A stretch of 64,000 nucleotides of DNA, from positions 20,420 to 84,419 of IMG/VR virus record IMGVR_UViG_2974574300_000001; one strand, written 5' to 3'. Under the pieces are notes generated by a model. That model was not told the DNA's origin and searched no databases. It saw nothing but the letters and a program-made list of their open reading frames with translations. The DNA is from a virus (Duplodnaviria > Heunggongvirae > Uroviricota > Caudoviricetes). Below, one piece after another: positions 8,322-49,194 of the stretch; within the stretch, counting starts at the first letter, position 1; each line of letters begins with the position of its first letter. Position numbers and translations under genes: made by a program.

Positions 8322-9257
8322 ATGCTTGCTTATTCTTCTGGCACTGGTACAGAGGTAGGTGATAGTGATGGCATTGCTTGGAATGCTAAAACTGGTCTGT
8401 ATAATGTTACAGGTTATAGTGGAGGCTCAACACAGCTTGTTTTCCAAATGTATCAGGGTGCAAGCTCTACTCCCTCTGCTCAATTAAAATTCAACTACAG
8501 GAATGGGGGTTTTTGGTATAGGTCATCAAGGGATGGTTTTGGTTTTGAAGAGGACTTCACACAAATTTATACAGAGAAGTATAAACCAACTCCTTCAGCT
8601 ATTGGTGCATACACTAAAGCAGAGACTGACCAGAAGATTGCAGAAGCGATTAGTGACTCTACAGACCTTAATAAAATCTATCCAGTAGGTATTGTAACGT
8701 GGTTTAACAGTAATGTTAACCCTAATACCGCACTTCCTGGATTAACTTGGACGTACCTGAACAATGGTGTAGGTAGGACAATCAGGGTTGCAGCAGCTAA
8801 TGGTTCAGATGTTGCTACAACTGGAGGCTCAGATTCTGTTACGTTAGCAGTTGGAAACTTACCTTCACACACTCATAGTTTCTCTGCGACAACCTCTAGC
8901 TTTGACTACGGTACTAAAACCACTAACACTACTGGTGCTCACACCCACTCAGTGAGTGGTTCTACTAACAACACTGGTGCTCATACACATACAGTTGGTG
9001 GTCGTTATGGTGGTGACTCTATCGGTGGTAAACATCGTGTTCAGGTCTCAGGGACTGAACAGGTATCTAGCTATGATGGTGCTCACTCTCACACTGTATC
9101 TGGTACTGCTGCCTCTAACGGAAACCATGCTCACACAGTTGGTATTGGTGCTCACAGTCATACAGTTAGTGGTAACACTGGTGGTACAGGTTCTGGTTCA
9201 GCATTTAGTGTAACTAACCAGTTCTATAAGCTGATGGCTTGGGTAAGAACTGCTTAA
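8322..9257 (+). CDS. tail fiber protein, HxH-tip paralog; frame open upstream from 8247 and possibly fused to 6914..8275
   Basis: 311 aa from first ATG; C-terminal FDYGTKTTNTTGAHTHSVSGSTNNTGAHTHTVGGRYGGDSIGGKHRVQVSGTEQVSS nearly identical to 5697..6863; upstream in-frame translation QQIQPSDFSNLDARYYTQSTANSRY continues the repeat of the preceding gene. Confidence 0.55.
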   Translation: MLAYSSGTGTEVGDSDGIAWNAKTGLYNVTGYSGGSTQLVFQMYQGASSTPSAQLKFNYRNGGFWYRSSRDGFGFEEDFTQIYTEKYKPTPSAIGAYTKAETDQKIAEAISDSTDLNKIYPVGIVTWFNSNVNPNTALPGLTWTYLNNGVGRTIRVAAANGSDVATTGGSDSVTLAVGNLPSHTHSFSATTSSFDYGTKTTNTTGAHTHSVSGSTNNTGAHTHTVGGRYGGDSIGGKHRVQVSGTEQVSSYDGAHSHTVSGTAASNGNHAHTVGIGAHSHTVSGNTGGTGSGSAFSVTNQFYKLMAWVRTA

Positions 9258-9336: not shown

Positions 9337-9531
9337 ATGCCTACAATCCTAGCAATTCTCCTAAAAAATCTAGGTAGCTTCTTCTGGAAACTCATTTTAT
9401 CCCTTCTAAGTGAATACATGATTGAGAAAGTGTTCTTTAAGCTTGCAAGATACCTTGCGGGTAAGACAGACACACCTATTGATGATGAGTTCGTAGATAA
9501 CTTAGAAAAAGCTTTTAAGGGGGAGAAATAA
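9337..9531 (+). CDS. small membrane protein
   Basis: 64 aa, hydrophobic N-terminal segment ILAILLKNLGSFFWKLILSLL. Confidence 0.35.
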   Translation: MPTILAILLKNLGSFFWKLILSLLSEYMIEKVFFKLARYLAGKTDTPIDDEFVDNLEKAFKGEK

Positions 9532-9897
9532 ATGAAGTGGCTAGAGGAAGCTTTTAAAAATAATATTGGTGCAATTGTTGTTGGTATTTTTAGTGTTATT
9601 GGGATGTATACCACGATGCAAGTTTCAAGTGGTAAGCAAGAAGTGTCTGTCACAACAAAGTTACAGCAGCTAGATAATTATTCCAGAAGTAACTATTCAG
9701 CTATTCGTGATTTACAGTCTGACATGAGACTGATTCAGCTAGGGATGGAGAACCAGAAAGTTCAGTTAGAGAATGTTAAGGGTGAAAACGCAAAACTTAC
9801 CAAAACCCTTGATAAATTCTCTGACAGTGTAAATAATCTGGCTCAATCAGTATCAGCCCTCCAAGCTATTACTGAGAAGAACACAAAAGAACACTGA
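9532..9897 (+). CDS. membrane-anchored coiled-coil protein
   Basis: 121 aa; N-terminal TM (IGAIVVGIFSVIGMY) then coiled-coil-like region. Confidence 0.35.
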   Translation: MKWLEEAFKNNIGAIVVGIFSVIGMYTTMQVSSGKQEVSVTTKLQQLDNYSRSNYSAIRDLQSDMRLIQLGMENQKVQLENVKGENAKLTKTLDKFSDSVNNLAQSVSALQAITEKNTKEH

Positions 9898-12172: not shown

Positions 12173-12532
12173 TTATGGGAACAAGCACTTAATGTCATCG
12201 TTTTTGAAAACAAAACTTGTGTAGTTGTGACCGTCAACATCCAGCCAAACAGCCTGAACATCTACACCATCAAGATTCTGGTAAAGCTCTTTGATGAAGT
12301 GGTCTTTTACAATCTGACTGCTAGTTGTTTCCAGCTTAATGTTCGAGATTGCTGAACCTACAGCCATATAACCCATGACACGTTTCTTCTCAGTATGCTT
12401 AATCTTACCATCTTTGTAAGCCATAATGAGATTGGAAAGAATCTTTACACCATAATACTTTTCAAGGTGAGTAGGTACACCATAAAAGCCTAATGCGAAG
12501 TTTTCAGAGTGGATAATGTTTTCACGTTTCAT
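12173..12532 (-). CDS. hypothetical protein
   Basis: 119 aa ORF. Confidence 0.4.
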   Translation of the reverse strand: MKRENIIHSENFALGFYGVPTHLEKYYGVKILSNLIMAYKDGKIKHTEKKRVMGYMAVGSAISNIKLETTSSQIVKDHFIKELYQNLDGVDVQAVWLDVDGHNYTSFVFKNDDIKCLFP

Positions 12533-12533
12533 A

Positions 12534-12863
12534 TTAGTCTGCCAACCTTAAATTGAAATTAACACCAAATTTTTCACATACTTCCAACATATACTCAAGG
12601 GAAACATTACCAGTGAGGTGGATTATGTTGGATACACGAGCCTGAGAGATACCGCAAATTTTAGCAACTTGTTCTTGAGAAAGACCTCTGGATTTAATCT
12701 CTCTCTTAAAACGATGTGCAACGAAGTCTCTCATTTCGTCTACATCCATTGGACAAATATAACTCTCCATTTCAGCCTCTCTATCAGCCTCCCAATCATC
12801 TTGTGGGGCATAAGGGTCAAAAACATCATTCATCTTTCTTCTTCCGTTTGCGTGAAGTGTCAA
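12534..12863 (-). CDS. helix-turn-helix (XRE-like) DNA-binding protein
   Basis: 109 aa; LSQEQVAKICGISQARVSNIIH resembles an XRE-family HTH. Confidence 0.5.
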   Translation of the reverse strand: MTLHANGRRKMNDVFDPYAPQDDWEADREAEMESYICPMDVDEMRDFVAHRFKREIKSRGLSQEQVAKICGISQARVSNIIHLTGNVSLEYMLEVCEKFGVNFNLRLAD

Positions 12864-13038
12864 TCAATGAATCTATGTTTGTAGCCCTAACCTTTTCACG
12901 TTCATCGTTAAGATAATCATCAAGAACCTTTTCAATCTGTGAATCATCTTGACAGATAACTGTAAAGACTGTAAAGCCGTCTGTATCATCAATTATCTTA
13001 CCATAACCGCTTCTGGGATGTAACTTTTTAAGAGCCAT
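12826..13038 (-). CDS. hypothetical protein
   Basis: 70 aa ORF overlapping neighbour. Confidence 0.3.
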   Translation of the reverse strand: MALKKLHPRSGYGKIIDDTDGFTVFTVICQDDSQIEKVLDDYLNDEREKVRATNIDSLIDTSRKRKKKDE

Positions 13039-13039
13039 A

Positions 13040-13423
13040 TCAAATACCTGTGCAGCTTCTGTTTTCTAAGAAATACTCAACACCATACATAGCTTTTTGC
13101 ATCAAATCTTCTTTAAACTGGATACGATGGTTGCGCATAGCCTGTACATCAATATCATCATGGTGCTTCTCTTTAATATTTGCAGATTGCAGGAAATACT
13201 CTCCAAGAACGCGATACTGATAGTCAGTTACCTTATCAGTCATCTCTGTTAAAGACTCTTCAGAGATTGGTTTCAGTAGCTCACCATTAGCTAGAGCAAG
13301 ACCTTTAACAATCTGGCAAGTGTCTTCTGGAACACCTGATAAGTCCACATTTGGAAGTTCTGTTGCATTGACTGGTAAATTCATTGCCATAACCATTGCA
13401 GCAGCTAATAAAATCTTTTTCAT
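13040..13423 (-). CDS. secreted (signal-peptide) protein
   Basis: 127 aa; N-terminus MKKILLAAAMVMAMNLPVNA is signal-peptide-like. Confidence 0.45.
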   Translation of the reverse strand: MKKILLAAAMVMAMNLPVNATELPNVDLSGVPEDTCQIVKGLALANGELLKPISEESLTEMTDKVTDYQYRVLGEYFLQSANIKEKHHDDIDVQAMRNHRIQFKEDLMQKAMYGVEYFLENRSCTGI

Positions 13424-13705
13424 AATGACCTCAAAGTTATATTAAATTTTGTATTACATTGAGTATAAAAATAAGCTATAACACCTGACTTGTCAACAGA
13501 TTTTATAGCTTATTTGGCAGATTTTTTATAAGGCTACTGCCATCCTTCCATACCAGACTACGCCATGCCAGACCAGACTTCACATCACCTTACCGTGCAA
13601 TACATCGCTTAAAACCCTCTTAGAAGACTCTTAAGTGATGCTGGTGAGTACCCGTTGGTTCATGCTGCTCAGTATACTCACCAAATTTTCTATGTCAACA
13701 ACTTT

Positions 13706-14845
13706 TTATTCGTAATCTCGAATAACTAGCCCAACAGGGAACTGTAAAGACCCCTTACGAGTCATCTTCTGGAACTGAACCGTCAAAGGTTTCCCGATAA
13801 ACTCTTCAGGATGCTCAGCAAGATACTGTTTCTTCTCATGAGTAGTTTTCCATGAGACATCTACAAAGACGTTAGGAAGAGTCTCTACAACGAACTTGCC
13901 ATGACCACGTTTATCGGTCTTTACACCAGTCACTTTAAACTCTTCAGTGTGCATCTTCTTGTGCTTAATCAAGAAGTAGGAACGGTGACCACACTCGTAG
14001 AAAGATTCTTCAGAGATTGAGCGGTACATTGCACCTTCAAACTTAGCTTCAACCCACTTATCATGAGCTTCATCAAACTCTTCCCAAGAATTTACACGAC
14101 GAGACTTAACAGGAACAACTTTACAGCCGTCTCTAAAGTCATTCAATGGTGAAGTCTCAATAATATCTCTACGCTCAGGCCACGTCTTAGTACTGTCACA
14201 GATATCATACCAGTAAAACTTGAGTAGATGTCGGTCAGGATTGTCTTCATTTTTAATCATGGAGACAATATCTTCTAAGTCCAACCCATGAGCATAGATT
14301 TCACCATCAAATTCATCAACATCTTTATGGAGCCTCAACATTGCCATAATGTCAGGTATTAGCTCAGTAGGAATTTTATAAATAGTGTTCTCACGAGAAT
14401 ATGCTGTAAATACACTGCCAATACTTAAGTGTCTTGAAATTCTACAACGGACACCATCAAGTTTTGGTTGAGCATCAGCAGGGAACTTCAGATACTTTGC
14501 ATGGCTAACCTTTGCAGCATCATGAGCAAGCTGTACACCTACCTTCTCAGTATTCTGTGCAGACTCTTTTGTGTAAGCGTAACCTTTACGGTCTACTTGT
14601 TTCTTGTACTTAGCAGAAACTTCAAAGAGAGCTTGCTGTTCAGCGTTACGCTCATTCTTTTTACCGATGTTCTTAGGCTCTGCTGTGTACTCTTCAAACA
14701 TCATCTTGCCATTTTCTTTACCGTAGGTTGTAATAACTTTGTCACCTACAGCAACACATGACCAGACGTTAAAAGAGCCGTCTTTATTTTGTTTGTATAG
14801 GATTGTCATTTTATTCCTCTGAGTGATACCAAGTATTGCAAGCAT
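13706..14845 (-). CDS. ATP-dependent DNA ligase
   Basis: 379 aa with ligase motif I PKLDGVR, motif III FDGEIY, EGAMYRS and motif V LIKHKK. Confidence 0.7.
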   Translation of the reverse strand: MLAILGITQRNKMTILYKQNKDGSFNVWSCVAVGDKVITTYGKENGKMMFEEYTAEPKNIGKKNERNAEQQALFEVSAKYKKQVDRKGYAYTKESAQNTEKVGVQLAHDAAKVSHAKYLKFPADAQPKLDGVRCRISRHLSIGSVFTAYSRENTIYKIPTELIPDIMAMLRLHKDVDEFDGEIYAHGLDLEDIVSMIKNEDNPDRHLLKFYWYDICDSTKTWPERRDIIETSPLNDFRDGCKVVPVKSRRVNSWEEFDEAHDKWVEAKFEGAMYRSISEESFYECGHRSYFLIKHKKMHTEEFKVTGVKTDKRGHGKFVVETLPNVFVDVSWKTTHEKKQYLAEHPEEFIGKPLTVQFQKMTRKGSLQFPVGLVIRDYE

Positions 14846-15002
14846 TACATGCGTAAAGCTCTAAGTCATTTTTATCTGGTTTGTGGAAACAGTTGGCTCC
14901 GCAGTGGCAACGAAATGGCTTTCCACCAACTGTCAGGATGAAGGACTGAACCTTTCCATCAGGAGTTCGTACAGCATTTTTATGCTTATCTTCTTTGTTC
15001 AT
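14811..15002 (-). CDS. small zinc-ribbon protein
   Basis: 63 aa with CHCGANC and CNACN cysteine clusters. Confidence 0.35.
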   Translation of the reverse strand: MNKEDKHKNAVRTPDGKVQSFILTVGGKPFRCHCGANCFHKPDKNDLELYACNACNTWYHSEE

Positions 15003-15304
15003 TTTCTCTTACCACCAATCTCTACGTCGATAACTTGAACATCGCCAGCAACATCAAACTTATGAATGATGCTTTCAACAGTGTAAGTCCAACCATCAAT
15101 GCGAACCAGCTCACCTTCTCGTGGAACTATTGGATTACGTTGAGCTACGGTTGTAGTGGAGTGAACAGCATCATAACAGTAGATATAGTTTACTAGGACT
15201 TCCATCGTGAAAACCTCACTCAATAACCGTAGTATGTGATTCCCCATTTTTGCCATAGCTGTAAGATGTTGTTGTTTGAGAGTTTGGGCATCTGACAACA
15301 ACAA
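14999..15304 (-). CDS. hypothetical protein
   Basis: 101 aa ORF. Confidence 0.35.
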   Translation of the reverse strand: MLLSDAQTLKQQHLTAMAKMGNHILRLLSEVFTMEVLVNYIYCYDAVHSTTTVAQRNPIVPREGELVRIDGWTYTVESIIHKFDVAGDVQVIDVEIGGKRK

Positions 15305-15473
15305 TATCTCTGCTTATAGCATCACCATGTAACTTGTATACTCTGCAATCTTGCATCTCTGGTGGGAGGCTGTAAGAAGCATTTTTATCTTCATAAGAAG
15401 GGTTGCAGCCAGATAGAAAAATTACTCCAAGTGCAACCATTGCTTTCACACAACTCTTAACCTTATTGTTCAC
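15216..15473 (-). CDS. small lipoprotein (possible superinfection-exclusion type)
   Basis: 85 aa; signal peptide with lipobox LSGC, two further Cys in the mature part. Confidence 0.45.
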   Translation of the reverse strand: MNNKVKSCVKAMVALGVIFLSGCNPSYEDKNASYSLPPEMQDCRVYKLHGDAISRDIVVVRCPNSQTTTSYSYGKNGESHTTVIE

Positions 15474-15605
15474 GATAGTCTACCTCTCTGTATGTTTTTA
15501 AATAGTGAGTGATGAGTTCTGGTAATTCACTACGTTTAACGTTTGAACGAAGAAGTGTCCAGTCAAAACCTTTACCAACCCTTCCCCAGAGACTGTACAT
15601 TTTCT

Positions 15606-15839
15606 TCATAGCAACTCCAGAATATCAATACGTTCACCTTTGAGTACTCCAGTACGGTCTCTTGCAATCTTACCATCAACAATAAGAATGTGCGCAGACT
15701 TTAAAGCCTCACGATTAAAACCTTTTACGAACTTACTAGGCATCACTACAATGTACATCTCCTGAATCAACTCTGGAGTATAGCAATTGTCATGAAGTTG
15801 CTGAATAACGTCTGCAAGTGTCATTTTTGATGTCTCCAA
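15606..15839 (-). CDS. hypothetical protein
   Basis: 77 aa ORF. Confidence 0.35.
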   Translation of the reverse strand: METSKMTLADVIQQLHDNCYTPELIQEMYIVVMPSKFVKGFNREALKSAHILIVDGKIARDRTGVLKGERIDILELL

Positions 15840-16030
15840 TACTCAATGTCAATAAGTTCTTGTGCAATGCTTTTCAGATTACCTTTCAAGAAAACCTTCT
15901 CAGAACCTGAAAGAGATGAATTGTCAATTAACCTGTTCATCCTCTCAAACAACTTCTGCTTACGGTTCTTGATAGTTTCCTTTGAAGCACCTTTCATCAT
16001 TGCTGCATGGGTTCTTCCACGGTGGCTCAT
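15821..16030 (-). CDS. hypothetical protein
   Basis: 69 aa ORF. Confidence 0.3.
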   Translation of the reverse strand: MSHRGRTHAAMMKGASKETIKNRKQKLFERMNRLIDNSSLSGSEKVFLKGNLKSIAQELIDIEYWRHQK

Positions 16031-16081
16031 AAGCCCTCCTATATAAGATACAGTATAAGGTACTCTTCCCTGAGCACCTTG

Positions 16082-16597
16082 TCAACTTAGTTTTGCAAAC
16101 TCTCCGTGGAGTTTAATAGCAGCTTCACAGTAAGCTTTATGGGCTTCTTCTTCCGTTGTGTATGTTCCTATATGTATAGTCTTGCCATTATGGTTAATCT
16201 GGGCTATCCACTTACCAGACTTGCTTCTACTTGTACCTTTTAAGTTTTTTGATGTTCTGGGTTGTCTCCTATTAGACATGTTCTGCTCTTTTGTGGCCTC
16301 TCTTAGATTGTCCCAAGCGTTATTCAAACCATCTCCATCTTTGTGGTCAATGTGTTTATCAGGCCACTTACCTGTCATCCAGAACCAAGCAATTCGGTGA
16401 TTACCTGTCCTGTATCCTAAAATCTGTGTGTGCATATACACACCAGACCTTGTGCGCTTAATTGCTCCGGCTTGGCTTCCAATGACCACCCTACTACTAT
16501 GTGGAGGTCTCCCAATCCATGTTAAGACCCCTGTTTCGGGGTCATAATCTAACCAAGACTTTAACTGTTCATGTGTGAATCCACAATCTCTCATCAA
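16082..16597 (-). CDS. HNH homing endonuclease with AP2-type DNA-binding domain
   Basis: 171 aa; YDPETGVLTW N-terminus, IDHKDGDGLNNAWDNL HNH region, C-terminal EEEAHKAYCEAAIKLHGEFA; free-standing, directly downstream of the polymerase. Confidence 0.65.
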   Translation of the reverse strand: MMRDCGFTHEQLKSWLDYDPETGVLTWIGRPPHSSRVVIGSQAGAIKRTRSGVYMHTQILGYRTGNHRIAWFWMTGKWPDKHIDHKDGDGLNNAWDNLREATKEQNMSNRRQPRTSKNLKGTSRSKSGKWIAQINHNGKTIHIGTYTTEEEAHKAYCEAAIKLHGEFAKLS

Positions 16598-17148
16598 TGT
16601 ACCTCATACCAGCTCTTACCAACTTTACCAGTACCAGTTACAAGCGTTTCCTCCTTAAGACCTAAGTTTCTTGATGCCTGACCATACATCCAGTCAATTA
16701 CTGCTTTAACATCCTGTGTCATCTCTTCTGGGCACTCCCAACTATTCTCGTCGTGGTATGCTAAAAGCAATCTAGCACCAATAGCTGGTTTTCGACCATT
16801 CAGCTTTGTAAGACCCTCTTCACAAGCCCTTCTACAAGCAAGGTTGATAGCTTCATTCTGAACCTGACTTTCCGAACCCATGAGCAAGTAATTTAAAAGT
16901 TTGTGCGGAGATTTACACCACAACCATGCACCTGCTACCTTTACAAAACCACCCTTAGAGATTGCAGCAGTCTTACCAAACACCTCTTCAAGAGCCTTCT
17001 TAGTGGCTTTGAAGTCTGCTTCCAAATTATCTATCAACTTTTTAATCTTAGGAAGGCGTACAAAGTAAGTTTGCTTAGTTAAAGCACCCTCTTCAGTAGT
17101 TGCAGCTTTAATCGTCTTAGCAAACTTCTCGTCACCTGCCCCAAACAA
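16594..17148 (-). CDS. DNA polymerase (family A), 3' exon
   Basis: 184 aa with FGAGDEKF (end of motif B) and LLAYHDE (motif C); separated from upstream pol ORF by an ORF-bearing intron-like insert. Confidence 0.7.
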   Translation of the reverse strand: MFGAGDEKFAKTIKAATTEEGALTKQTYFVRLPKIKKLIDNLEADFKATKKALEEVFGKTAAISKGGFVKVAGAWLWCKSPHKLLNYLLMGSESQVQNEAINLACRRACEEGLTKLNGRKPAIGARLLLAYHDENSWECPEEMTQDVKAVIDWMYGQASRNLGLKEETLVTGTGKVGKSWYEVH

Positions 17149-17951
17149 TACATCTGGTCAATACACTCGCAAGGTGTACCAGTTCTCTTATGAACTTCTC
17201 CGCATTTCTACGGAGTGTCGGACTATATCACGTAGCAGTGCTGCTACCGTTGCGCTTGGGATGGTCATTAGCTTACCACCCTACTCTACTCAGTTCATAC
17301 GTTAAGTATGCTTTTCGATAGTCTCTGAACGTTTCTCTGTTAGGAATCTCTATAATCATGTTATTTACTCAGGTAGTCAATTGCCCTTTGCATATTATCA
17401 ACGCTATCTGCAAGCAACCCCAAAGCTCTATTGCAATTGTGGCACAACATACCTCTTACTTTTCCGGTTTTGTGGTCATGGTCAACGACAAGTTTAGCCT
17501 TATGCCGTGAGCTATTCATGATAAAACCTTCACCGCCACAAATTTGACATTTGTAATCACAGTTACGAAGTAGGGTTTCAACCTCTTCTCTTTCTAAACC
17601 ATATGTTCTCAGGTAGTAATTCTTAACTCTACCTTTCTCTCCGCAATGCGAAGAACAATAAACTTGCCTTGCTGTTCTAGGCATGAACACCTTCTCACAG
17701 CTAGGACATTTCTTAGTAAGAACCCTATGTTCTGCTCTTCTGTCAAATTTTAATACGCAACTTCTGCACCGTTTTTGATTGTATTGGTATGGTTTAAACT
17801 CTGCACCACACTCAGTACACAATCTCTCTTTGTAACCTGCCATTGTCTCTCTCCTTTGTTTTAGGAGTCCTAACAGAGACTTCGCTGCTGATTACCATGT
17901 CTTTACAGACTTAGGCTTCCAGCAATTCACAACGTTTTACATGCGCCACTG
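17149..17951 (-). mobile_element. putative group I intron in the DNA polymerase gene (boundaries approximate)
   Basis: ~0.8 kb insert with stops in all pol frames, carrying an endonuclease ORF; joining ...RKKAKNGIYA to LLFGAG reconstructs the pol-A motif B spacing. Confidence 0.5.
17361..17843 (-). CDS. intron-encoded endonuclease (endonuclease VII-like HNH)
   Basis: 160 aa with multiple CxxC pairs and VVDHDHKTGKVRGMLCHNCNRALG, resembling T4 endo VII-type HNH. Confidence 0.6.
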   Translation of the reverse strand: MAGYKERLCTECGAEFKPYQYNQKRCRSCVLKFDRRAEHRVLTKKCPSCEKVFMPRTARQVYCSSHCGEKGRVKNYYLRTYGLEREEVETLLRNCDYKCQICGGEGFIMNSSRHKAKLVVDHDHKTGKVRGMLCHNCNRALGLLADSVDNMQRAIDYLSK

Positions 17952-20124
17952 ACGCATAAATACCATTCTTGGCTTTCTTACGACCCTTACTAATTTCTTG
18001 AAGAAGGTTTGTATCCTGAGTAGCTCGACAAGTCAAGATATCTTCCTCTTTATTAAGGCTGAAGTAGATACTATTTAAAGTATGTGCATCAGTTCCTGAG
18101 TACACCACGTACAAGTCATTTTCCGAATCATAATGCAAATACTTGTCAATCTCTGGGTTTAGATACTGGTCAAAATGTTTACAATAGTATCTACCATCCT
18201 CTTGTTTGACAAACTCAACCTCTTCTTTACCCTCTGTCACTGCTTTGGTGAACTCTTTATCACCCATAAAGTTACACAGCAGTACAAGTTGCGCGCTATT
18301 CATATCTGCTGAAACAATATTAGTCCCTTCTTCACAAGTCCACACCTCCCGCATAGGTGCTCCATAGACAGCAGCACCAGATGGTACGTTTACAATACCA
18401 TATTGTGTCATACGCCCAGTTGAAGTACCAAACACCATTGCACCAGCACTAAGGCGACCATCAGGACGAATCTGGTTCAACCAACCTTTTTCATCATCCT
18501 TTGAGTTCTCAATAGTTCTGCGTCTGTGCATCAAAGTATAGTATTTAGCAATCTTCTGTCCAAGCTCACCTTCAATCGTATCATAAGATGATTCAGTAAG
18601 TTTTGGCGAAGTACGGATTAAGCAAGGCTCAAGCAAATCTGTGTACTTCTTCACAGACCAGTTATGCTCAATGTACTGGACACCTTCATGTTCAACATAA
18701 CTCAAACCACACCGCTCAACCATTTCCTGCCACTTAGGATGTTTTGTAATCATCTTTTTATTGTCTTTGAAACGACAAACTTTGACAGGACGACCATCTG
18801 AGTCTTTCTTGTAGTTCCAGTCATCTGGAATCCAACCAACTGATTTCAAGTAGTCTTTAACAACTGCTACCTGAGTCATACGAGAAACTTCGAACTCAAT
18901 TGGTGTATATGGTGCATCAATCAAACCTGTGTAGCGACTTGACTCAAGTTCAAAGTGGTTAACGACGTGGCTGTTATAGTACTTCACAGTTTTGACTGTT
19001 TTTACTGGTTTCCAGTCTTTGCATTTCTTACCAATCTTTGCGTTCAACTCATTGCAAATTGCACGAGCATCCTTCATTGCTACAAAGCCTTCCTTGTACT
19101 CTTCACCAGTTACAGTGTTGGTTGGTGTATAGCAATTTCTCTTTTCAATGTTAAAAATCTTTGTAGTTGGCTTACCAAATGGCTTGATTTCATAAGTTTG
19201 CATCTCACCGTTACGTACCTGCTGACGATACTTTGTTTTAGGGTACTTGGTAATTCTCTTCAGTCCATCTGCATGACCAAATGTTTCAACATACTCATTC
19301 CAAGCTTTTGCAAACTCTTCTCCAGTGACTTTACCTTTGGTCTTAATAGTTGGAGGAAGATGTGGTTCAACCTCTGAAGCAAGCTCATTAGTCAACTTGT
19401 CAAGTTCCTTCACATGGAACTCCATAAGCTCTTTATCAGCTTTCCAACCATTGATAGCTTGTTGACTCATCCAGAAAGATGTTTCTTTAGCTCGCATGTA
19501 GGTTTCATAAGTGTCTATGCCACACTTCTTAAGCTTGAGATACTCATTATCAAGTGCCCGTTTAGTTTTGGCGTTAATACGGATATCTTCTACAACACGA
19601 GTGAAGATTTCTGCATTCCACACACCCCAATGCTCAATCTCTGGTTTACGAACACCAACACGAGCACCCCATGCAGCCAAACCATGAGCACCTTTATAAC
19701 CCTTTGGAGTTGGTCTATCCATCCACTGAACACGAGACTGGATAAGAGAATCCTGAAAGAAATTACTCCACGGCTTACATTTTGGATTATCAAAGTTCCA
19801 TAAATCCGGTGCAATGTGATTGAAGACCCACCAGTCATAACCGAGGCCGTTATGGATACAAAGTCGTTTTGCCTTTAACGCAAACTCAACACCTTCACGT
19901 AAACCACCCTTAATGTACTTAGTGTACTTGTGACCGAGGATAGGCTCATCTGTAAAGACCCATACAGGTGGCTCTTCATCGTCAGATTTATAGTCTGCAA
20001 AGGCCATTACGTGAACTTTAGTGAACTCAAGGAGTAAACCATCAGTTTCTGTATCACCAACCAAATGTAAGTTTTTAAAATCTACGTTTTCCATTTTTAC
20101 TCCCTCTAAAATCATTAACCCCAT
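17952..20124 (-). CDS. DNA polymerase (family A), 5' exon with 3'-5' exonuclease region
   Basis: ORF 17911..20124 (737 aa); the last ~13 codons are probably intron sequence; C-terminus reaches the start of motif B (RKKAKNGIY). Confidence 0.7.
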
Positions 20125-20154
20125 ACATTACTGCAAAAAATTATAAAAAGCAAG

Positions 20155-20183
20155 TTGACAATACACTTGACAAGGTGTTAATC
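20155..20183 (+). promoter_or_regulatory. sigma70-like promoter in divergent intergenic region
   Basis: ttgaca-N17-ttaatc; a second ttgacaagg box lies inside the spacer. Confidence 0.3.
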
Positions 20184-20350
20184 TTTGCGAAGTGGGTTTT
20201 TACTTAAAAGGTTACTTAACAGTTTAACTATACAGATACTTTAAAACTCTTAAAAGATTATTTAATAGCTTTTAAAAAGCTTTAAAGTATAACGTATAGA
20301 ATACGTTAAGATAAAAGATTAAACTTAATAGTTACTTAAAAGAGGCTTAC

Positions 20351-20773
20351 ATGCAGAAAATGTTTGTTCACCCAGACATAGCTGACTTTGTTAGAGCTTT
20401 GCAGAAGTTGGAAGAACTTGACATTGCTGCTCAACGGGAATATGCTCACCATCACAGGAGAATGGTTGATATACAACATGAAATAGAGTTGTCTGAAAAC
20501 TATGAAGATGACTTAAAATGCTCTGTATTTGAGCATATGAAAGATGTTGCTACAGCGAGACGTAAAGCTAAAGACACAGTTGCTTTACTAGATTCTCTTA
20601 AAAAGAGGTTGCAAAGTGGTACAGACCTGTGTAATCTAGCGTCACTGATTAACGATGTTGAAACTTCTTGGGATAGGCACTATTATCCACGTTCTGAAAA
20701 GACACTTGACTTTTCTTCATCCGAAAACTTAAAATGTTCTAGAAAGAAACTTAACCAACTGAGAGAGAAATAA
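20351..20773 (+). CDS. hypothetical protein
   Basis: 140 aa ORF opening the + strand replication block. Confidence 0.4.
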   Translation: MQKMFVHPDIADFVRALQKLEELDIAAQREYAHHHRRMVDIQHEIELSENYEDDLKCSVFEHMKDVATARRKAKDTVALLDSLKKRLQSGTDLCNLASLINDVETSWDRHYYPRSEKTLDFSSSENLKCSRKKLNQLREK

Positions 20774-46934: not shown

Positions 46935-47483
46935 ATGAAGAAATTGATTCTAGGTTTGTGCTTAATGTTTACAGCACACTTATCTTATGCAGTTGACTGC
47001 CCAGAGCTATCAATTAGCCAAAAAGTAAACATGTTAAAAGCTTACCAGTATGGTGAGAATAACATGGGTAAAGGTTGGGGTATTACTCTAGCAGCTATAG
47101 CCTTACAAGAGTCAGAGTTAGGTCTGAAGGTAGAGAATAAAAAGACCCATGACTATGGTATTTTCCAGAATCACTTGAAGACTGTTGTAAAGCGTAACAA
47201 AATTAGCCCTAATGTGGCTAAAAAGAAACTCTTAAGAGATTTTGATTATGCTGCGAAGGAAACGCACAAAGAGCTTGAGTTTTGGACAAAGGTACATGGT
47301 CAGCCAAAGTCAAAGAAGACTTTACAAAAAGTTTTAGCATCATATAATGCTGGGTATTCGTACAGAATCCCTAAAGCTAAGAAATATTCTCAAGATGTTT
47401 ATAACAATATGAAAGTAATTGCTCAATGTGAATTTGCAACAAACATTTCTAAGGTAAACCATGAAAAAATTAAGAAAGTCTGA
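46935..47483 (+). CDS. secreted lytic transglycosylase-like protein (SLT family)
   Basis: 182 aa; signal peptide MKKLILGLCLMFTAHLSYA; SLT-like motifs AIALQESELG, YGIFQN and ASYNAGYS. Confidence 0.55.
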   Translation: MKKLILGLCLMFTAHLSYAVDCPELSISQKVNMLKAYQYGENNMGKGWGITLAAIALQESELGLKVENKKTHDYGIFQNHLKTVVKRNKISPNVAKKKLLRDFDYAAKETHKELEFWTKVHGQPKSKKTLQKVLASYNAGYSYRIPKAKKYSQDVYNNMKVIAQCEFATNISKVNHEKIKKV

Positions 47484-48683: not shown

Positions 48684-49031
48684 ATGACATTTAAAGAGTT
48701 CTGTCAAGCCACTTTCATAATTGTTTTCTTAGTTGGGGCAGGTGTCTGGGGAGGATACTCTTACAGAGACTGTCAAGTTGCTGAAACTGAGCTAAACAAT
48801 CAAAAGCTCATAAGTGTTGCTAAAGATGCTTATCAGGAAGGATTAGTCACACTGAGCACCAATTACAAAAATGATTTGAAAGATGTGCTTGCTAAGAATA
48901 AGCATACAAAAGAGGTACTAACATATGAAAAAACTAAGCCAGAGTTTTATAATGTTTGTGTTACTGATAACTATGTCAGGGTGTTCAACGAACAAAGTGA
49001 ACAGTACATTCAAAAACTCCCAAGTAAGTGA
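48684..49031 (+). CDS. putative i-spanin (inner-membrane spanin subunit)
   Basis: 115 aa; N-terminal TM (ATFIIVFLVGAGVWGGY) and charged periplasmic domain; 3' end overlaps a lipoprotein ORF in another frame. Confidence 0.45.
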   Translation: MTFKEFCQATFIIVFLVGAGVWGGYSYRDCQVAETELNNQKLISVAKDAYQEGLVTLSTNYKNDLKDVLAKNKHTKEVLTYEKTKPEFYNVCVTDNYVRVFNEQSEQYIQKLPSK

Positions 49032-49194
49032 GAGCGATAAGTACACTCAAGAAGAGTCACAGTATATCATCAAAGGCAACACAGGCAGTGATGTAGCAGC
49101 AGCCCTTGAGTTCTATCGTGACGGCTTTTACCAGTGTACAATCAAAGCTAATAACCTTATTGACATGATTTTATTAGGGAATAAGCAGCAATGA
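48925..49194 (+). CDS. putative o-spanin (outer-membrane lipoprotein spanin subunit)
   Basis: 89 aa; signal peptide with lipobox ITMSGC, one further Cys; start embedded in the 3' end of 48684..49031. Confidence 0.45.
   Translation: MKKLSQSFIMFVLLITMSGCSTNKVNSTFKNSQVSESDKYTQEESQYIIKGNTGSDVAAALEFYRDGFYQCTIKANNLIDMILLGNKQQ

Follow-up and report, generated by a model that had tools for sequence, protein, structure and literature searches.

The window analysed here, a stretch of 64,000 nucleotides from a virus of the class Caudoviricetes (IMG/VR record IMGVR_UViG_2974574300_000001, positions 20,420 to 84,419), carries on its minus strand a block of genes arranged in the order DNA polymerase, HNH endonuclease, several small ORFs, the gene of a predicted small lipoprotein, two small ORFs, and DNA ligase. 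The immediate neighbours of the lipoprotein gene (Table 1) encode soluble proteins of 48 and 68 amino acids, and its location among replication genes on the same strand, as described in an earlier note on this DNA, was confirmed. The 3-kb stretch around the gene matched 257 phage records at 80-95% identity, nearly all of them representing Felix O1-like myophages (Felixounavirus) with hosts belonging to Escherichia, Salmonella, Shigella, and Citrobacter; the phage analysed here is itself a Felixounavirus. The ORF itself is the orthologue of Felix O1 p170; its counterpart in phage ASO1B is annotated as similar to Felix01p170.

Table 1. Features of the lipoprotein gene and of the spanin gene pair in the window (positions refer to the window).
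Feature	Position	Strand	Description	Basis
Lipoprotein precursor CDS	15216..15473	minus	85 aa from GTG 15473; stop codon 15216..15218	ORF list, sequence
Shine-Dalgarno-like GAGG	15483..15486	minus	9 nt upstream of GTG 15473	read from sequence
Signal peptide, predicted	15408..15473	minus	residues 1-22, MNNKVKSCVKAMVALGVIFLSG	read from sequence
Lipobox L-S-G-C	15405..15416	minus		PROSITE-like rule
Mature lipoprotein, predicted	15219..15407	minus	63 residues; predicted small beta-domain	AlphaFold2
Conserved family core	15249..15374	minus	Y34 to K75	alignments, cysteine statistics, secondary structure
i-spanin	48684..49031	plus	phrog_1152, E 2e-40	
o-spanin lipoprotein	48925..49194	plus	MKKLSQSFIMFVLLITMSGC...; overlaps i-spanin in +1 frame	

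Pairwise dN/dS values between 0.07 and 0.23 were obtained for the gene among its Felixounavirus orthologues, and the ORF is a real gene under purifying selection rather than a chance ORF. Its translation reads MNNKVKSCVKAMVALGVIFLSGC followed by NPSYEDKNASYSLPPEMQDCRVYKLHGDAISRDIVVVRCPNSQTTTSYSYGKNGESHTTVIE. The start codon is ambiguous, the candidates being GTG 15473 (85 aa), GTG 15449 (77 aa), and ATG 15440. Most homologues start at MWK, and in that of Citrobacter phage Moogle this start is preceded by a stop codon; GTG 15449 of the window falls approximately at the position of the homologues' MWKA start (one codon downstream in the alignments). Compared to most members of its family, phrog_902, the window copy features an extra N-terminal extension from the GTG start and otherwise no substantial difference. 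The stop codon of the upstream ORF (15463..15465) overlaps the start of the gene, suggesting translational coupling of the two. A listed ORF at 14999..15304 apparently overlaps the lipoprotein gene as well; its real start is ATG 15205, and its PHROG match begins at residue 34, indicating that the two genes do not truly overlap. Scanning of the region 12500..20600 for sigma-70 promoters and terminators gave results no better than those for shuffled sequence, so that no transcription-unit boundaries were obtained and the expression timing of the gene is deduced from its position only.

The predicted signal peptide comprises a positively charged n-region and a hydrophobic core, followed by the lipobox. 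Together with C23, the peptide MNNKVKSCVKAMVALGVIFLSG fits the lipobox pattern [LVI][ASTVI][GAS]C of a PROSITE-like rule, in agreement with the lipoprotein signal recognized earlier. The mature protein is predicted to begin with Cys23 (codon 15405..15407), which would carry the lipid, and Asn follows at +2. Application of the same rule to all six frames of the window yielded only two matches in real genes, namely the gene described here and that of the o-spanin. The product is very likely a lipoprotein of the phrog_902 family. Its orthologues are annotated inconsistently, being 'hypothetical' in most genomes, 'Cor superinfection exclusion protein' in phage vB_Ec-M-J, and unannotated in phage Andreotti (MN850610). 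Such omissions by some annotators, together with the ambiguity among the three start codons, would fit a product that is not a lipoprotein in vivo, being translated from ATG 15440 or not exported, with an incidental lipobox. This explanation is regarded as extremely unlikely, because the lipobox is retained with each of the three candidate starts, even the product of ATG 15440 begins MVALGVIFLSGC, and the ORF omitted from the Andreotti record is intact (locus L002, 4220..4474). Furthermore, the lipobox cysteine is invariant in every family alignment, and at least 209 of 216 diverse family representatives possess a lipobox.

In the mature part, the core motif of the protein is Y-x-L-P-x-E-M-x-D-C43-[KR]-[VI]-Y ... 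V-V-R-C62-P-N-S-x-T-T ... G-K. C43 (codon 15345..15347) is invariant in the family alignments and C62 (codon 15288..15290) is conserved in at least 90% of the sequences. Strands were predicted at mature residues 5-7, 22-26, 35-39, 45-51, and 54-60 (AlphaFold2 model m4f8f81b963d1, mean pLDDT 72.5), the structure models being of moderate confidence only (pLDDT 64 and 72.5). According to these models, C43 and C62 flank a predicted beta-hairpin, an arrangement that would suit the disulfide which the earlier note had considered for the two further cysteines. A PDB fold search with the protein returned no match, and sequence searches against Pfam, NCBIfam, and PDB gave no meaningful match.

Several further observations were made in the same block of genes. 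The second exported protein proposed to lie nearby (13040..13423, minus strand) does carry a Sec-type signal peptide, MKKILLAAAMVMAMNLPVNA; it belongs to phrog_4332 and is 34% identical to its Moogle orthologue, compared to 76% for the lipoprotein, indicating that it evolves much faster. The DNA polymerase gene is interrupted (16594..20124, minus strand). Its first ORF covers 17911..20124 (737 aa), and ORF 16594..17148 (184 aa) aligns at 89% identity to residues 723-906 of the uninterrupted, 906-aa polymerase of phage ASO1B. The insert of approximately 760 nt carries the HNH endonuclease ORF (17361..17843), and a sub-threshold match to a group I intron was found at 17792..17928 (26 bits vs. 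a gathering score of 50, E 2.8e-4). A mobile group I intron carrying a homing endonuclease gene is the probable explanation of the insert. A Cys/His-rich ORF of 63 aa (14811..15002, minus strand; phrog_5768) separates the ligase gene from the 68-aa ORF. In VpaE1_ev108, no CDS is annotated at the corresponding place, and in phage Andreotti the corresponding stretch is labelled as a second 'DNA ligase' CDS. Related genomes match the 3-kb region as two pieces with approximately 94% coverage, suggesting an indel at this position.

The lipoprotein matched phrog_902 (PHROGs v4, labelled 'unknown function') with an E value of 1.1e-16 (62 bits, residues 2-83), and distant homologues matched the same group with E values from 1e-7 to 5e-13. 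Members of phrog_902 include Felix O1 p170, Moogle gp40, A5-4 gp44, Ab_121 gp80, and vB_Ec-M-J gp513. In common with these members, the protein has the lipobox, a linker of the same length, and the core Y-x-LP-x-E[LM]-x-D-C-K-[VI]-Y ... VVRCPNS-x-TT ... GK, which spans approximately 45 residues, contains two conserved cysteines, and recurs in phages of Vibrio, Acinetobacter, Escherichia, and Pectobacterium. By means of tblastn, relatives were detected in 586 phage records, among them 295 Vibrio phages of approximately 114 kb; others belong to Felixounavirus, Vequintavirinae, the jumbo phages of Asteriusvirus, and Acinetobacter phages of Saclayvirus, and the host range includes Salmonella. A profile search of 1.84 billion representative proteins recovered at least 1,157 clusters (50% identity) at E<=1e-3 and 632 at the stricter E<=1e-10. 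Among the best 150 clusters listed, members are between 71 and 154 residues long. Exactly two further cysteines were found in 186 of the 209 lipobox-bearing representatives, and the lipid cysteine is separated from the first core cysteine by 17-26 residues. The longest members featured only low-complexity or repeated-strand tails, and neither an enzymatic domain nor a fusion was found in them.

Phages appear to be the exclusive carriers of the gene within the data searched. No DNA-level match was obtained in 5,426 complete E. coli genomes (blastn down to approximately 65-70% identity), and 72,556 plasmids were devoid of protein-level matches. A role as a lysogenic-conversion 'moron' was dropped on these grounds; the gene is one of virulent phages and no prophage moron. 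Five phage groups were compared in order to detect a conserved partner gene, and no neighbour was common between groups. Phrog_902 is thus shown to be a large stand-alone family of virulent-phage lipoproteins. The Vibrio phage homologue sits between the genes of an origin-binding protein and a helicase, and a location of exported proteins among early or replication genes is accordingly not unusual for this family, contrary to what had been assumed in the earlier note. In the literature, no functional study of the phrog_902 family or of Felix O1 lipoproteins was found.

In precomputed tables (PF16225.11), every homologue is tagged with the Pfam family PF16225 (DUF4884), two of these tags being free of the mark for weak or faint matches (i.e., E<=1e-5). 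Using hmmscan with the local Pfam version PF16225.10 (gathering score 30 bits), no match was obtained for the protein at E<=1 and none for its close relatives even at E<=10. Since the local version failed to reproduce the tags, the connection to DUF4884 is treated as distant, and the sequence comparisons suggest a faint link between phrog_902 and this family. Rtp3 of phage Rtp matched phrog_6360 strongly and both phrog_902 (E 9e-5) and DUF4884 (E 9e-4, 19.4 bits) weakly; hhalign of Rtp3 against the family profile gave E 1e-5. Like the lipoprotein of the window, DUF4884/phrog_6360 proteins including Rtp3 are small lipoproteins with an early-gene location and two core cysteines, the Rtp3-type core pattern being C-x-x-Y-[RK]-[FL] ... 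C-x-x-S-T ... Y-K-S-G-[KR]. Relatives of Rtp3 were found in 119 records of T1-like (Drexlerviridae) and other phages, and are sometimes annotated as 'DUF4884 domain-containing protein' (PMC12210894).

A possible function originally suggested for the protein was that of phage T5 Llp, namely receptor blocking that prevents superinfection. Such a lipoprotein would attach from the periplasmic side to the outer-membrane receptor used by its own phage and render it unusable, thereby protecting the infected cell and the released progeny. T5 Llp and the Cor proteins of N15 and phi80 are outer-membrane lipoproteins that inactivate FhuA (PMC9586334, PMC12685063). Rtp45, the superinfection-exclusion lipoprotein of phage Rtp, binds LptDE (PDB 9RPS), contains one disulfide and a beta-hairpin, and acts from the periplasmic side (PMC12685063). 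The general design is the same: Llp, Cor, and Rtp45, like the protein studied, combine a lipobox, approximately 60 mature residues, and cysteines suited to a disulfide (PMC12685063), and T5 Llp is likewise a protein of a virulent phage. The disulfide and the beta-hairpin of Rtp45 have predicted equivalents here. Moreover, Asn at +2 fits sorting to the outer membrane, and the homologue EcMJ_513 is labelled as a Cor superinfection exclusion protein.

The comparison of the sequences, for which T5 Llp, N15 Cor, and Rtp45 were taken from their own genome records, pointed in the opposite direction. The group matched by T5 Llp (E 1e-19) and by N15 Cor (E 3e-32) is phrog_1119, and that of Rtp45 is phrog_4281, whereas the lipoprotein of the window matched neither group at E<=0.01. 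Profile-sequence alignments of the family with Llp, Cor, and Rtp45 (by hhalign for Rtp45) did not extend beyond the signal peptide, and with an HMM built from the mature domain, scores of 4.7, 1.2, and -1.9 bits were obtained, respectively. The Cor label of EcMJ_513 was rejected, because the underlying match (E 9e-4) covers residues 1-49, mostly signal peptide, compared to E 5e-13 for phrog_902. As judged by sequence, the lipoprotein is unrelated to T5 Llp, and the PDB fold search offered no match that would connect it to this group.

The genomic context differs as well. In T5, llp adjoins oad (pb5); N15 cor is part of the tail-fibre region, between gene 23 and gene 25 (a probable tail fibre component), with the tail-tip fibre gene 21 located a few genes before it; and rtp45 adjoins rtp44 and the tail-fibre gene rtp43. 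The gene in the window is located approximately 6 kb from the tail-fibre gene (ending at 9257), with no receptor-binding gene adjacent. Felix O1-type phages were reported to target LPS and no protein receptor (PMC8594841), which leaves a periplasmic lipoprotein without an evident route to receptor masking. Furthermore, this phage and Moogle share 76% identity in the lipoprotein but approximately 50-55% in the tail fibre and 36-55% in the small ORFs flanking the lipoprotein gene; the better conservation of the lipoprotein relative to the tail fibre indicates that it does not track receptor specificity. Finally, phage Rtp carries Rtp45 beside its tail-fibre gene and, separately in the early region, the distant relative Rtp3, and the coexistence of the two lipoprotein types speaks for distinct roles. 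The phage is consequently unlikely to mask its own receptor as Llp and Cor do, and exclusion of the Llp/Cor/Rtp45 type as a whole is considered improbable. While the signal, the cysteines, and the location described in the earlier note were borne out, the Llp-like function failed with regard to every testable feature of membership. Receptor-independent superinfection exclusion in a broader sense is conceivable.

Lysis was considered as a further possibility, the protein acting as a second o-spanin or as a spanin or holin regulator anchored in the outer membrane. O-spanins (Rz1-like) are likewise small phage lipoproteins with a predicted outer-membrane destination, lysis genes occur at dispersed genomic positions in Felix O1-like phages (PMC4319497), and the Acinetobacter homologue weakly matches Rz-like spanin PHROGs (E 6e-4 to 2e-2). 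These matches cover, starting from the signal peptide, the N-terminal 43-60 of 81 residues. The window carries its own spanin genes in the classical overlapped architecture (48684..49194), and the lipoprotein is therefore not the o-spanin; this assignment was rejected. The inner and outer membrane spanins of Moogle were annotated separately (PMC4319497), Moogle40, the homologue of the lipoprotein, being left hypothetical in the Moogle genome record by the authors who annotated these spanins, and a spanin survey catalogued the spanins of Felix O1, Moogle, and wV8 as one two-component family (PMC6139136). Unlike an o-spanin gene, the gene studied here belongs to the replication block and not to the late genes, no gene for an i-spanin or another protein with an N-terminal transmembrane segment adjoins it, and the mature part of its product is not proline-rich (4 of 63 residues). 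A role in lysis is accordingly judged to be very improbable.

In the surroundings of the spanin and tail-fibre genes, other membrane-associated or exported products were recognized. Just upstream of the spanin region, a 182-aa exported protein of phrog_600 with the N-terminal signal peptide MKKLILGLCLMFTAHLSYA is encoded at 46935..47483 (plus strand). Directly after the tail-fibre gene, two ORFs for small membrane proteins follow (9337..9897, plus strand), both labelled 'unknown function' in PHROGs. One of them, ORF 9532..9897, features an N-terminal transmembrane segment and a coiled-coil-like tail and was considered as an i-spanin-like candidate; it is the orthologue of the Moogle 'putative holin' (92% identity), and a link to the lipoprotein was discarded.

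No function of the lipoprotein is established by this analysis, and we infer the following course of events from position, sequence, and models. The gene would be transcribed together with the DNA polymerase-to-ligase block and hence before the late genes. Its product would leave the cytoplasm through Sec, receive its lipid on Cys23, and be processed by signal peptidase II. According to the enterobacterial +2 rule, Asn at this position directs a lipoprotein to the outer membrane and Asp retains it in the inner membrane, so that the window protein is predicted to be sorted to the outer membrane. The beta-domain, probably oxidised to a C43-C62 disulfide, would hang in the periplasm on a linker of approximately 10 residues. 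As the models predict a small beta-domain and the longest family members feature neither an enzymatic domain nor a fusion, this part represents a putative binding module, which may bind a component of the host envelope or periplasm conserved throughout Gammaproteobacteria. Most likely, this would result in a function in envelope takeover, with receptor-independent exclusion of later-arriving phage DNA or protection and conditioning of the envelope during the latent period as possible outcomes. Taken as a whole, this explanation, a family lipoprotein with an envelope-takeover role, is preferred with slightly less than even confidence, and an envelope-binding or exclusion function as such is put forward tentatively. 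T4 Spackle (Sp), a periplasmic inhibitor of the incoming tail lysozyme, was considered as an analogy in function only; the sequence and fold searches of PDB gave no match resembling Sp.

The residue at +2 is variable within the family. Asp was found in 47 of the 209 lipobox-bearing representatives, with A5-4 (CDQ) and vB_Ec-M-J (CDA) as examples from E. coli phages, and by the +2 rule some members would stay in the inner membrane, which weakens models that need an outer-membrane location. The membrane of residence may thus not matter, and a target in the periplasm agrees with this no less well than an outer-membrane barrel. In favour of a factor of counter-defence or stress control, the same variability, and Asp in particular, would suit a soluble periplasmic target better than such a barrel. 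This factor would neutralise a conserved host periplasmic protein, for instance a protease, a nuclease, a peptidoglycan hydrolase, or an envelope-stress sensor, and keep the infected cell productive without excluding other phages. The restriction of the family to virulent phages and the conservation of its core despite large differences in virion, receptor, and host among these phages also agree with such a factor. No similarity to known families of periplasmic inhibitors was detected in Pfam, NCBIfam, and PDB, and this alternative, including the targets named as examples, is considered rather unlikely, even though the present data do not separate it from the envelope-takeover explanation.

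With regard to the family as a whole, the phrog_902/DUF4884 lipoproteins might represent a type of periplasmic effector that is widespread among virulent phages and independent of the receptor, a generalization that is rather doubtful at present. In this view, a small domain stapled by a disulfide and tethered by its lipid would bind a single envelope machine conserved in Gammaproteobacteria. Candidate partners would be, for example, a component of outer-membrane biogenesis, the Tol-Pal system, or peptidoglycan remodelling. Such an effector would broadly exclude unrelated phages or condition the envelope; it would be distinct from Llp, Cor, and Rtp45 and could coexist with them. The small phage lipoproteins known to act in the periplasm are few, and all of them are tied to one outer-membrane protein receptor (FhuA for Llp and Cor, LptD for Rtp45). 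The phrog_902 family is far larger, the phages that carry it are unrelated in virions and hosts, and T1-like phages possess a distant relative next to a receptor-linked lipoprotein in their repertoire. If binding to a conserved envelope component proved true, a general step in the takeover of the envelope by virulent phages would be revealed, possibly along with a new way to perturb an envelope machine. The gene is already known as a 'hypothetical protein' in hundreds of sequenced genomes, with its family catalogued in PHROGs, and can be regarded as a moderately interesting experimental subject.

Variation at the C-terminus and a possible duplication were also observed within the family. Some members (the set of P0031, P0033, P0041, P0081, P0130, and P0198) carry a C-terminal extension or a repeated strand. 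In one subset, the extension ends approximately in L-x-K-L-[TS]-x-E-[ED]-[RK]-[KQ]-[AVL]-L-G-[LIV], and in another, [IV]-[DN]-G-x-T-Y strand repeats follow a Pro/Thr-rich linker. Phage vB_Ec-M-J encodes a second lipoprotein, MIKKLLTVVFVFCTMFLTAC..., two genes downstream of EcMJ_513 (locus L003, 3120..3395). Its YVYECPGH motif resembles the VVRCPNS motif of the family, and it may be a diverged paralogue.
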